From NCBI GenBank assembly GCA_963717465.1, contig OY970340.1, positions 160,001 to 224,000 of the forward strand: a stretch of DNA of 64,000 nt, given 5' to 3'. The stretch is from Candidatus Bathyarchaeota archaeon. GTDB taxonomy: Archaea > Thermoproteota > Bathyarchaeia > Bathyarchaeales > Bathycorpusculaceae. Positions 33,263-36,073 of the stretch are shown here, one piece after another. The position numbers and the translations under genes were made by a program. Under the pieces are notes generated by a model that saw nothing but the letters and a program-made list of their open reading frames with translations, was not told the origin of the DNA and did not search any database. The stretch's first letter is position 1. Every line of letters starts with the position of its first letter.

Positions 33263-33544
33263 TTACTCCTGTTCCAGTTTCATCGTAATTGCCTTTGCGG
33301 GGCATTCATTTGCGCAAATTCCGCAACCTTTGCAAAAGCTAAGATCAAACTCGACTTTTTTGAGTTCTGGACGCCAGCGAATTGCTCCGTCTGGGCAGAA
33401 TAATACGCATGTTAGGCAGAGAGTGCATTTCTCCAAGTCTCTAATAGGCATGAAAGTTTTCCAGTCTCCAGTCATGAAGCCAACGCTTGATTTAGGGCAA
33501 ACGGCAGCCATAGAAATTTCTTTCCAATTTTTTTCTCGACTCAT
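33263..33544 (-). CDS. porD: 2-oxoacid:ferredoxin oxidoreductase delta subunit
   Basis: TGDWKT and two [4Fe-4S] motifs (CKGCGICANECP). Confidence 0.93.
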   Translation of the reverse strand: MSREKNWKEISMAAVCPKSSVGFMTGDWKTFMPIRDLEKCTLCLTCVLFCPDGAIRWRPELKKVEFDLSFCKGCGICANECPAKAITMKLEQE

Positions 33545-34104
33545 TCTGTTTTTGCCTCCTCATATGCTTCCTTGATAACTTTGAAGTTTTTTTCTGCAAC
33601 ATCGGGTCTGAAACGTTCATTTACAGTTTTTTCAACAGTGTCCAAAGAAATTATTCCTGTTGCACGTGCGACGGCACCAAGCATTGCCGTGTTTGTTATC
33701 GGTGCACCTAATATTTTCAGGGCTATTTCAGACGCTGCAACTGTCCAAACCTTGCCTTTAACTACTCTAAGATTTTCCTTTAAAACTGAAGGCGTCTCAG
33801 TTGAATTAAGTATGATTATATCGTCATCCTTGTTTAAACCCGCCGTAACAGGCACAGTTTTAAGCAAAGTATTATCCAAAACTATAACAACATCTGGATC
33901 GTACACAGCGCAATGTAACCTAATTGGTTCCTCACTTATTCGTGTAAAAGCTGTTACAGGAGCACCCATCCTTTCAGGTCCAAACTCTGGAAAAGACTGA
34001 ATATACTTCCCTTCAGCATGCGCTGTTCTAGCTAATAATTCGCTGGCTGTCCAAGCGCCTTGCCCACCACGCCCATGCCATCTGAATTCAACTAGTTTTT
34101 TCAA
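33541..34104 (-). CDS. porG: 2-oxoacid:ferredoxin oxidoreductase gamma subunit
   Basis: RWHGRGGQG, FGPERMGAPV, NTAMLGA. Confidence 0.93.
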   Translation of the reverse strand: MKKLVEFRWHGRGGQGAWTASELLARTAHAEGKYIQSFPEFGPERMGAPVTAFTRISEEPIRLHCAVYDPDVVIVLDNTLLKTVPVTAGLNKDDDIIILNSTETPSVLKENLRVVKGKVWTVAASEIALKILGAPITNTAMLGAVARATGIISLDTVEKTVNERFRPDVAEKNFKVIKEAYEEAKTE

Positions 34105-34314
34105 GTAATCTTTCTCCAAATAATGTTCACAAATTAAATACACAATACCTAAATATACATTTTTATTGCAAAAATACGTTTCTATTTATCTTCATACGAT
34201 AATCTTTCTATCGACATTGACATAAGTATCGCTAATATGCAACCAAGCTCAACACTACTGATAAAATTTAATCAGTTATAGGATATGTTAAAAAGGTATG
34301 CGTTGCATTATTTT

Positions 34315-35038
34315 ATGGTGCCCAAGGTGGAGAAATCGGATTGGGAAAGACTTATTGACAGCTTGGTGAAACAGGGAATTCTCCATTCGCCTAAGGTAAT
34401 TGCGGCAATGCGCTCGTTACCCCGCACAAAGTTTCTGCCTGCTGACATGCAATCGTACAGTTCCACTGACACGCCTCTTCCAATTGGTTTTAGCCAGACA
34501 ATATCGGCGCCACATAACTTGGCTTAAATGCCTTGTTAGGCGAAACATGGTTTCAATCATGAATGAAGCCCTCCAATTGGAAGTTGGAAACAGAGTCTTG
34601 GAGATAGGTGCAGGCTCAGGCTGGCATGCAGCGACGATAGCGGAGCTGATAACTGCTAAAGATGCTCCAAGAACCGAATGGGGACACGTTTACACGGTAG
34701 AGATTATTCAGGGGTTAGCTGATTTGGCAAGAAAAAACATCATGAACGCAGGTTACGGTGACCGAGTGACCATAATAAACGCTGACGGCTCGAAAGGGTA
34801 CCCTCAAAAAGCACCGTACGACAGAATATTAGTTACCGCAGCAGCCCCTAAAGTTCCAGAACCATTGCTTGAACAATTAAAAATCAATGGTATAATGATG
34901 ATTCCAGTAGGAAGCATGACGCTCTTCCAAAACCTATACAAAATAACTAAAACCGCTGATGGAAAAGTCAAGCGGGAAAATCTTGGTGGGGTAGCTTTTG
35001 TTCCTTTAACTGGGGAACATGGACAGAACCTAAAATAG
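34315..35038 (+). CDS. pcm: Protein-L-isoaspartate O-methyltransferase, interrupted by a 31-nt BHB intron (join 34315..34513,34545..35038)
   Basis: Exon 1 ends DTPLPIGFSQTISAP; exon 2 reads (H)MVSIMNEAL..VLEIGAGSGW..YDRILVTAAA..FVPL. Spliced length 693 nt is in frame. Confidence 0.92.
34514..34544 (+). other. Bulge-helix-bulge (tRNA-type) intron in mRNA
   Basis: CGCC-ACA-UAAC-UU-GGC-UUAAAU-GCC-UU-GUUA-GGCG-AAA-C: 4-bp central helix, two 3-nt bulges, intron hairpin. Confidence 0.85.
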
Positions 35039-36073
35039 CTAACCGAACCATTTAGTCAGCGTGGTTTTGCCTTTTTCTTTCTTTGTGCCCTCAAGCATTT
35101 TATCTAAGGACTTTTTCACCCGATCTTCCGAAAAATCTTTTTCATGACACAGAAAATCAACCGTGCCGTCAACATTTGGCTCTTGCCAATCTAAAGAATA
35201 ATTGTCAGTAACTTCAGGATGCAAGAAAATTTCGCGTATCCGTTCGGGTTCAACTGGGAAAACTGCATTTTTTATGCTCGGTAAAGCCTTTTCTATTGTT
35301 CCATTTTCTTTGATGAGTTTAAGTGCAGTCTTTGGGCCTAGCCCTTTTATGCCGTTAGGGTTAAAATCCGTGCCAATCAATATACCTACATCGATCAACT
35401 GCTCAAAAGTTAACTCGCACTCTTTAAGCGCTTTATTGAGCTCGATTACTTCTGGAACAATGTCGACGTAAACGTTTTTGCTTGGAAGTTTTCTTCTTCC
35501 AGAAATAGTCACGTTCCTAAGCAGCAAAGGCGCCCCGAAAAGCAGACTGTCATAATCTTGACTTGCACAGTAATCAGCTTTGCCACTTTTGGTCATGTGT
35601 GCTGCTTGGGCTTCGCCTTCACTTGGCGCTTGAACACAAGGTATCCCCATAAGATTTAGCAGTTTCTTACTGTCATCCTCCATGTAATCCTTCATCGTCA
35701 TCGTTGCCTGAGCGAACCGTCGCATCTTCTCCTTATCACCCTTTGCAACGGCTTTCTCATAATGCGCAGAAGCTTCGATCTTGATTTGCCTGCGCCGCTC
35801 AATCTCTGCAGCTTTCAAAGTCGGCGGAGTGCCATCAAACACGTAGATTGGTTTTAAACCCATTTCCAGCAGGTTGCTTGTGCGGTAAAATAATCCGCTA
35901 AGGTGACTGGTTATTTTTCCCGTGGCATCTTTTAGCGGCGTGCCATCTGGTTGACGAATAATTGCAAGAAACTGGTAAAGAGCATTATATGCATCTATGG
36001 CGATGACTTTTCCGCTTAAATCTTCAAGTTTAACCTGAGTTTTCGGTATAAGGTCTTTGAAGTTTACGCCCAA
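35039..36073 (-). CDS. fen: Flap endonuclease 1
   Basis: MGV, IDAYNALYQFL, APSEGEAQAA, SQDYDSLLFG, PIP-like TLTKWF. Confidence 0.97.
   Translation of the reverse strand: MGVNFKDLIPKTQVKLEDLSGKVIAIDAYNALYQFLAIIRQPDGTPLKDATGKITSHLSGLFYRTSNLLEMGLKPIYVFDGTPPTLKAAEIERRRQIKIEASAHYEKAVAKGDKEKMRRFAQATMTMKDYMEDDSKKLLNLMGIPCVQAPSEGEAQAAHMTKSGKADYCASQDYDSLLFGAPLLLRNVTISGRRKLPSKNVYVDIVPEVIELNKALKECELTFEQLIDVGILIGTDFNPNGIKGLGPKTALKLIKENGTIEKALPSIKNAVFPVEPERIREIFLHPEVTDNYSLDWQEPNVDGTVDFLCHEKDFSEDRVKKSLDKMLEGTKKEKGKTTLTKWFG

Follow-up and report, generated by a model that had tools for sequence, protein, structure and literature searches.

Does the pcm gene of a bathyarchaeal genome lie broken, or is it interrupted by an intron that its host removes from the messenger RNA? 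The question is raised by the 64,000 nucleotides at 160001-224000 of contig OY970340.1 (C1) from a Candidatus Bathyarchaeota archaeon, the stretch of DNA analysed here and called the window, in which the reading frame of pcm, the gene for protein L-isoaspartyl methyltransferase (PIMT), is broken by the 31 nucleotides 34514-34544. Comparison of genes across archaea indicates that this insert is a real and conserved intron with a relaxed bulge-helix-bulge (BHB) motif. It adds to a class of mRNA introns known to be very small, and its range is much wider than reported. We consider it highly probable that the insert is an mRNA intron of the type known from cbf5, removed by the splicing endonuclease EndA together with RtcB, and that full-length PIMT is made.

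The interrupted gene and its fold

The break in pcm has a simple structure. A stop codon (TAA, 34525-34527) lies in the frame of exon 1, and the remainder of the gene lies in another frame. Deleting 34514-34544 at the BHB cut sites yields S-A-P-H-M-V in a frame that stays open as far as the native stop at 35038, and the joined product, 226 residues from a GTG at 34327, has Q-T-I-S-A-P-H-M-V restored. This GTG is the likeliest start, with ATG codons at 34315 and 34285 as alternatives; full-length relatives are mostly 225 amino acids long. The restored product is possible only if the deletion starts at 34514 or 34515. We place it at 34514 because of the BHB rule, by which EndA cuts after the second nucleotide of each bulge.

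The two pieces of the gene match abutting stretches of PF01135 (Table 1) and positions 6-66 and 65-213 of TIGR00080. An intronless relative (L002) scores above the TIGR00080 cut-off and, aligned with the solved PIMT 1JG1, has the same QT(I/V)SAPHM motif; QTISAPHM we take to be the PIMT-specific pre-I region. From full-length coverage of both profiles and from this motif, the gene can be assigned as pcm. The full gene is present in a single copy in the genome. Its nearest named relatives are Candidatus Bathyarchaeia at about 77-80% identity, among which it nests in a tree. Among neighbours of pcm loci the commonest cluster is fen1 (82 loci).

Table 1. Coordinates of the pcm locus and its neighbours in the window
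Feature	Position	Strand	Remarks
POR, 2-oxoacid:ferredoxin oxidoreductase gamma-type subunit, divergent neighbour	33541..34143	-	context
pcm exon 1	34327..34513	+	PF01135 4-63; ends with first base of His codon
Central helix, 5′ (exon) strand CGCC, 4 bp	34508..34511	+	paired in 159/159 intron loci
5′ bulge ACA, 3 nt	34512..34514	+	predicted cut 34513/34514
Intron, 31 nt	34514..34544	+	hairpin 34515-18/34535-38 and 34521-23/34530-32, loop 34524-29 (6 nt)
Central helix, 3′ (intron) strand GGCG	34539..34542	+	covaries with exon strand
3′ bulge AAA, 3 nt	34543..34545	+	predicted cut 34544/34545
pcm exon 2	34545..35038	+	last 2 bases of His codon, Met at 34547, stop at 35038; PF01135 61-208
fen1 flap endonuclease (XPG_N + XPG_I), convergent neighbour	35039..36073	-	profile domains; context

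An initial annotation of this DNA had described the 31-nt insert with its in-frame stop, the BHB with its bulges and intron arm, and the restoration of A-P-H-M-V in frame to the native stop. Each of its coordinates holds on re-computation. It had also called the exon-side helix weak, and indeed a single pair, G34507-C34546, closes the motif, with mismatches beyond. A strict BHB has at least two exon-side pairs; the motif of the window, with one, is relaxed. The fold has a predicted energy of -15.9 kcal/mol (z -1.97), and 9 of 200 shuffles were equally stable. Alone, such a modestly unusual fold is weak evidence, and the case against chance comes from relatives.

Other kinds of element were looked for at the locus. 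Positions 34300-34800 gave no Rfam match at E values up to 1, and the insert, at 31 nt, lacks the characters of a group I or group II self-splicing intron. Elsewhere in the genome there is no copy of 14 nt or more, except one 17-nt match with a mismatch. A sigma-70 promoter scan, whose model is unsuited to archaea, returned matches at chance level.

Inserts at the same site across archaea

Altogether, 159 distinct loci (the window included) carry an insert of 22-48 nt at the same codon, and 60 are precisely without it; the loci are related by descent, so that these counts overstate independence. Carriers are found among Bathyarchaeia, other Thermoproteota, and Asgard archaea. The 159 loci hold 156 different insert sequences, and 137 are 28-32 nt long. 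No insert exceeds 48 nt, and there is no endonuclease reading frame inside any of them; nor was a recurring nuclease family recognised on inspection of the clusters of neighbouring reading frames. The 219 distinct loci were collapsed from 272 that could be parsed, the parser requiring His-Met after removal of the insert. Left out of the counts were other methyltransferases (L028-L030), a chance match in Rhizobium (L140), an off-target match (L224), L265, and loci of other genes.

The searches behind these counts differ in what they presuppose. A protein search, using no DNA pattern, covered 61 genomes and a further 401 of the class (305 with a match) and returned 54 distinct pcm loci. All 54 can be parsed: in 43 the His codon is split by an insert behind its first base, and 11 are intronless. 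Scanning species genomes with a degenerate pattern gave at least 120 loci, with titles mostly of Bathyarchaeia. Further carriers among those listed are Baldrarchaeota (L039, L125, L137), Jordarchaeia (L070), Atabeyarchaeia (L106, a complete chromosome), Nitrososphaerota (L121, L145), and unclassified Thermoproteota, besides one chance match in Rhizobium. Because that pattern fixes the 3′ end of the intron, the central-helix count of these loci is partly built in, and the unbiased subsets carry the weight.

A free-gap pattern finds both intron-bearing and intronless states, and genomes it does not match may be diverged in the motif or incomplete. Within the window's own class it matched 60 of 141 genomes: the intron is present in 27, which represent seven families, and absent from 28, and 5 matches are off-target; thus, 28 of the 55 with a readable junction are intronless. 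Across the phylum it matched 130 of 301; beyond the class, a further 14 genomes, belonging to four families, have introns. Among Asgard archaea 202 of 301 genomes matched, and the 150 matches listed include at least 17 BHB introns, most of those listed being intronless. Misbinning does not explain the Asgard carriers, because two of them sit on contigs of 3.58 and 1.11 Mb. Five Asgard carriers were tested, and each has one pcm, which is interrupted.

Two loci from this survey stand apart. The 6.6-kb contig of L114, titled Candidatus Wukongarchaeum yapensis, bears a pcm 75-78% identical to Bathyarchaeia proteins and a Bathyarchaeia-type intron; it is either misbinned or recently transferred, and is not counted as Asgard evidence. 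L265 (G656:C212:3282-3307), from an Asgard-sample genome, is a second junction match with only 2 extra bases that could not be parsed; it may preserve the remains of an intron or be off-target. Nearer to the window, this query found pcm in 4 of 36 and in 6 of 38 other congeners, and nearly all other genera have the gene. The four congener copies inspected are all intronless.

Gene databases bear the mark of the insert. Among the best 120 database hits, 86 are proteins of 162-163 amino acids that start at the Met just after the intron. The 31 full-length proteins among the same 120 reach no more than 84% identity with any spliced translation, and for that reason are uninformative on splicing. 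Metagenome contigs gave six matches to the intron-free form of the junction, all at most 81% identical to any intron-bearing locus compared. None can be read as a spliced transcript, given this identity and the length of two of them (33 and 160 kb), by which at least two are genomic intronless alleles.

Covariation and codon constraint

Pairing of the central helix is universal among intron loci. Its states are CGCC/GGCG in 140, CACC/GGTG in 15, and CGCC/GGTG in 4, while the mismatched combination, CACC/GGCG, does not occur. The 43 intron loci of the protein search show the same four states as 39/2/2/0, and the 74 from protein or free-gap searches as 64/7/3/0. Exon and intron change together, because the exon base that varies is the wobble position of the Ala codon. 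On a tree of all 159 loci the state of this pair changes at least 12 times. When the tree is taken into account there are 5 independent contrasts, 4.7 in the same direction and 0 in the opposite one (p 0.06, five being too few to reach 0.05).

The hairpin of the intron covaries as well. Its first pair is U-A in 84 loci, C-G in 57, G-C in 14, U-G in 3, and mismatched in 1. The tree-aware comparison gives 7 independent contrasts, 6.9 the same way and 0 opposite (sign test, median p 0.016). For the second pair the signal is weaker: of 11 contrasts, 5.1 agree in direction, 0 are opposite, and 5.9 are unchanged owing to G-U. A stem of at least three pairs forms in 155 of 159 loci, compared with 6.4% in shuffles of the first 154; the sequence of the loop is free. 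In local folds the central helix exceeds a probability of 0.5 for 119 of the 159 loci. The exon-side helix comprises a single pair in 95 loci, two pairs in 57, and three in 7, and the ensemble probability of the exon-side pair exceeds 0.5 in only one of the 159. It is because of this short helix and its rarely high probability that the motif does not count as a strict BHB.

The intron also leaves its imprint on the codons beside it. In all 159 intron loci Ala is encoded by GCG or GCA and Pro by CCA or CCT, whereas among the 60 intronless loci every one of the four codons occurs for either residue. It is only in the presence of the intron that the synonymous sites are constrained. At the bulge cut sites, the joined product matches the sequence of intronless relatives. 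The initial annotation had proposed aligning pcm across relatives, and that alignment has brought out what it predicted: inserts at the same site, with covarying BHB pairs.

Coding consequence and selection

Nearly all inserts destroy the message in its unspliced form. Translation is broken by 158 of the 159: 128 cause a frameshift, and of the 31 that keep the frame, 30 contain a stop. The single in-frame, stop-free insert (L052, 27 nt) could add nine residues to the protein if the ribosome read through it. Purifying selection acts on both exons. Exon 1 has a median dN/dS of 0.10 and a maximum of 0.29 (39 usable of 40 disjoint intron-bearing pairs), exon 2 a median of 0.06 and a maximum of 0.13 (35 usable of 40). 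Decaying exons, which had been named in advance as grounds for refutation, were not seen.

Four other explanations of the insert were weighed. The best of them, which we hold improbable, is a split gene without splicing: the insert would provide a stop and a ribosome-binding site, and polypeptides of ~66 and 163 amino acids (the second from Met 34547) would reassemble. In every parsed locus the insert is followed directly by an AUG, the GGYGA that precedes this AUG by 4-8 nt resembles a ribosome-binding site, and the 16S tail of this genome has the usual anti-SD. Purifying selection on both halves and the annotation of the 162-163 aa piece by gene callers would fit too. However, the poorer SD match, GGCG, is the one used in 140 of 159 loci, and the better match, GGTG, occurs in all 15 loci with A in the exon strand and in only 4 others, which points to selection for pairing and not for SD. 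Further, the frame of exon 1 runs on for between 2 and 56 extra codons before it ends, and in 46 of the 159 loci the unspliced frame has Leu, Gln, or Arg instead of the conserved His. The AC before the AUG, present in 43 of 43 protein-search loci, matters only if it completes the His codon, and intronless alleles whose proteins are 87-91% identical show this joined junction to the letter.

Somewhat less probable again is cleavage of the BHB by EndA with the exons left unjoined, as a route to decay or a switch-off signal like the mRNA decay initiated by yeast TSEN. Available text of PMC10485636 describes cleavage of mRNAs by the yeast tRNA endonuclease without ligation, and the exon-side helix that would hold the ends has only 1-2 bp. 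Against this, RtcB is present. Some joined product is also needed, because 158 of 159 unspliced messages cannot encode the protein, the exons are conserved, and there is no second pcm. Partial decay alongside splicing is possible.

Translational recoding, in which the ribosome would shift frame or hop over the hairpin, is very improbable. Known ribosome bypass sites have a hairpin and a stop after the take-off point, and pcm has a stable hairpin with a stop just past that point. Yet insert lengths fall in all three frames, so that no single shift works; there is no matching His codon before the AUG, nor any His on the take-off side in those 46 loci, and two 3-nt bulges at fixed spacing would be left unexplained.

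Least probable, to the point of being negligible, is an assembly error or dying pseudogene in the window genome: this assembly does have unexplained frame breaks in cbf5, mtnA, rnhB, and carB, and a strong pcm match occurs in only 4 of 36 other congeners, all four intronless, but those breaks look like single-base slips and not 31-nt hairpins, the window genome's exons have dN far below dS against their nearest relatives, and 158 other distinct loci from independent assemblies, including the complete Asgard chromosome L106, have the insert at the same base, by which an artefact is already refuted for the element as a class.

Splicing enzymes and a second intron

The genome encodes the enzymes that removal of the intron would require. 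It has two EndA genes, L178 and L179. The first is closest to crenarchaeal catalytic alpha subunits (2CV8, E 1.6e-40) and keeps a loop in which K-P-K aligns with K-P-K of 2CV8 and K-P-R of 3P1Z and 3AJV. Portions of PMC12397907 tie the crenarchaea-specific loop, with K44-P45-R46, to cleavage of relaxed motifs. The weak exon-side helix had been said to fit an endonuclease of relaxed specificity, and the loop of the catalytic subunit agrees with that expectation. L179 lacks the catalytic-stretch His when aligned with 1A79 and is probably the structural subunit. Judged by its genes and loop, the host EndA would belong to the two-subunit, broad-specificity (alpha-beta)2 type, an assembly that is predicted; epsilon2 enzymes are the other form with broad specificity. 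RtcB is intact and full length (PF01139, E 2.8e-177). Two EndA genes are likewise present in all five Asgard carriers tested.

A second intron of the same kind lies outside the window. On the minus strand of C1, cbf5 has a 23-nt BHB intron (771103-771081, L180) with a good exon-side helix, placed in the catalytic Asp codon of G-T-L-D-P. The crenarchaeal cbf5 intron similarly interrupts the triplet that encodes the catalytic residue, as reported in accessible sections of Yokobori 2009 (PMC2738675). Inserts at the same cbf5 site were found in the tested Jordarchaeia, Atabeyarchaeia, and Nitrososphaerota-titled genomes and are absent from the tested Baldrarchaeota one. They occur in many families of the class among the 150 of 212 matches listed, some of which are off-target. 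The cbf5 insert thus extends beyond the published range found in our literature search. A cbf5 junction match at G063:C39:5821-5851 is only 11 nt longer than the intronless form, and would be a very short intron.

The introns of pcm and cbf5 come and go independently. The Atabeyarchaeia-1 chromosome CP147779.1 has both (L106 in pcm, L184 in cbf5), G139 and four f6 genomes have only that of cbf5, and G089, G042, and G181 have only that of pcm. The window genome is unusual in its genus for keeping both: five congeners tested lack the cbf5 intron, and four inspected lack that of pcm.

Taken with the same-site covarying inserts and the intact exons, the enzyme genes support the reading that the initial annotation gave of a BHB intron in pcm handled by EndA and RtcB, and carriers very probably splice their pcm mRNA. 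The pcm transcript would fold as a relaxed BHB, in which the Ala-Pro codons of exon 1 pair over 4 bp with the 3′ end of the insert, together with two bulges of 3 nt, a stable intron-side hairpin, and only 1-2 exon-side pairs. Heteromeric EndA would cut after the second base of each bulge. RtcB would then ligate the exons, rebuilding the His codon of QTISAPHM and hence a full-length PIMT, and the 31-nt intron would be released as a circle. Transcription, cutting, ligation, circle, and protein are steps that we infer from the genes.

Other introns and irregularities in the genome

The suggestion that further introns hide behind broken annotations stands for pcm, with 86 of the best 120 database hits truncated, and for cbf5, and goes no further, since neither of two genome scans yielded a third credible case. 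The first scan, for frame-restoring BHB-like motifs, returned 1087 candidates, compared with 1584 under decoy pairing rules; the raw filter is powerless, because decoys give more. Ranked by pairing probability, 13 candidates exceed 0.5, with pcm first of the 1087 and cbf5 fifth. The other 11 were judged by eye to be chance. A looser scan, which allowed short first exons, gave 4386 candidates, 128 of them above 0.5, with pcm fifth, and no third credible mRNA intron was seen by eye among its top 70. Both scans covered introns of up to 70 nt with a frame shift or stop and motifs no more relaxed than those specified.

Individual genes were also considered and rejected as interrupted by an intron. 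The catalytic motif of rnhB (near 2103330) is intact and its frame breaks later, a GatB_N-family gene read as gatE sits in a 638-aa open frame, and the frame break of carB (near 422200) comes without a recognisable BHB. Frame breaks lacking a recognisable BHB were noted in cbf5 near 770835, mtnA-like L179 1-1160, rnhB at 2103330, and carB at 422200. Those in these four housekeeping genes are probably single-base assembly errors, and gene calls in this genome need care.

The tRNA complement has peculiarities of its own. Two tRNA-Sec genes are called, at C1:845695-845779 (+) and 2829638-2829723 (-), one of them beside a full SepSecS gene (845799-846923, -), which suggests that selenocysteine is used in the window genome. 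Other tRNA genes called by ARAGORN have unusual anticodons or intron placement (for example C1:295325-295430, 837152-837255, 1957468-1957578, 2316394-2316504, 2904636-2904789), hinting at tRNA introns that are non-canonical or multiple, which a relaxed EndA would lead one to expect.

History and possible function of the intron

Phylogeny records repeated change in the state of the intron. FastTree was run on 135 of the 180 long-enough rows, near-copies having been thinned; the deep branches are poorly supported, and the position of the root is an assumption. On this tree the intron changes state at least 13 times, 5 of them forced by strong branches. A strongly supported clade with Bathyarchaeia-type genes comprises 83 rows, 69 with the intron and 14 without, and because intronless rows nest among intron-bearing ones, repeated precise loss fits. 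Asgard intron-bearing genes fall outside this clade on several deep branches, which argues against one recent transfer. The tree fits either one ancient gain or repeated gains at the same site, and independent gains would look alike, because the exon sequence dictates the ends of the intron.

Repeated precise loss argues that the intron is dispensable. In the simplest view it persists cheaply, with occasional precise loss, because the cell's own tRNA and rRNA machinery removes it. Yokobori (PMC2738675) proposed that the cbf5 intron serves in negative regulation, and the pcm intron could conceivably act as a gate on expression, although we think this rather unlikely. Tolerated persistence fits at least as well as regulation, because losses are frequent and the loop sequence is free.

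More tentatively, and with doubt predominating, we speculate that mRNA splicing by EndA and RtcB is an old trait shared by Thermoproteota and Asgard archaea, that the pcm and cbf5 introns are ancestral and often lost, and that the output of protein repair is tied to RNA processing. If true, Asgard archaea, the closest relatives of eukaryotes, would splice mRNAs, and more introns would be hidden in truncated gene calls. Splicing of Asgard mRNA is directly testable in existing data, because Atabeyarchaeia-1 has both inserts and its metatranscriptomes are reported in the part of PMC11291895 consulted.

Comparison with known systems

Archaeal mRNA introns have been reported rarely. Excerpts of PMC7714728 (2020) give cbf5 as the only earlier mRNA case, and those of a 2023 review (PMC10485636) list two archaeal mRNAs, those of cbf5 and HVO_1309, that the tRNA endonuclease splices, describe the cbf5 intron as limited to a small group, and expect more cases. 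Predicted introns in other archaeal protein genes are mentioned in part of PMC2738675 (its refs 39, 50). Our literature search, from which supplements and most subscription journals lay outside coverage, found no intron in an archaeal pcm, in keeping with the initial annotation; a prior mention is possible. The pcm intron would thus add a further intron-bearing gene, one that has no connection with RNA metabolism, and its natural variants, numbering more than 150, would define the enzyme's tolerance towards mRNA substrates. It also extends the known inserts, together with those of cbf5, to Bathyarchaeia and Asgard archaea. For databases the consequence is practical: PIMT proteins from carrier lineages are widely truncated at the intron, and re-annotation is needed.

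The closest counterpart is the crenarchaeal cbf5 pre-mRNA intron, for which Watanabe 2002 and Yoshinari 2006 are cited in sections of PMC2738675 and PMC10485636. As far as the accessible text of PMC2738675 describes it, the cbf5 intron is 16-44 nt long (pcm, 22-48 nt), and both are short, without a reading frame of their own, and inside coding sequence. Each interrupts, one base in, the codon for a conserved residue of a motif, often with a relaxed BHB, and both are patchily distributed with losses, in hosts with hetero-oligomeric EndA. Published cbf5 introns belong to Desulfurococcales and Sulfolobales in that text, whereas those of pcm occur in Bathyarchaeia, other Thermoproteota families, and Asgard archaea. 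PIMT repairs proteins while the cbf5 product modifies RNA, so that pcm offers no obvious feedback on RNA processing. Splicing has been shown for crenarchaeal cbf5; for pcm it is deduced from the genes.

Other systems share fewer features. HVO_1309 of Haloferax volcanii is likewise an mRNA substrate of the archaeal splicing endonuclease, but in the portions available of PMC7714728 and PMC10485636 its BHB intron lies in the 5′ UTR, breaks no reading frame, and is handled by an alpha2 homodimer, unlike that of pcm. Atabeyarchaeia and Freyarchaeia have non-canonical tRNA introns of the same motif, size class, and enzymes, situated in tRNA genes (PMC11291895 and bioRxiv 10.64898/2026.10.13.758758, in part). 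The main texts of these two sources, so far as available, leave cbf5 unmentioned, with 'isoaspart' absent from the former and mRNA from the latter.

Beyond archaea, the nearest parallel is the splicing of HAC1 and XBP1 by IRE1, in animals with RtcB as the ligase. Here, too, an endonuclease and a tRNA-type ligase remove a short, frame-breaking mRNA intron, as set out in the available part of PMC13149111. The nuclease of IRE1 is unrelated to EndA, and HAC1/XBP1 is a regulated stress switch, unlike pcm as it is known here.
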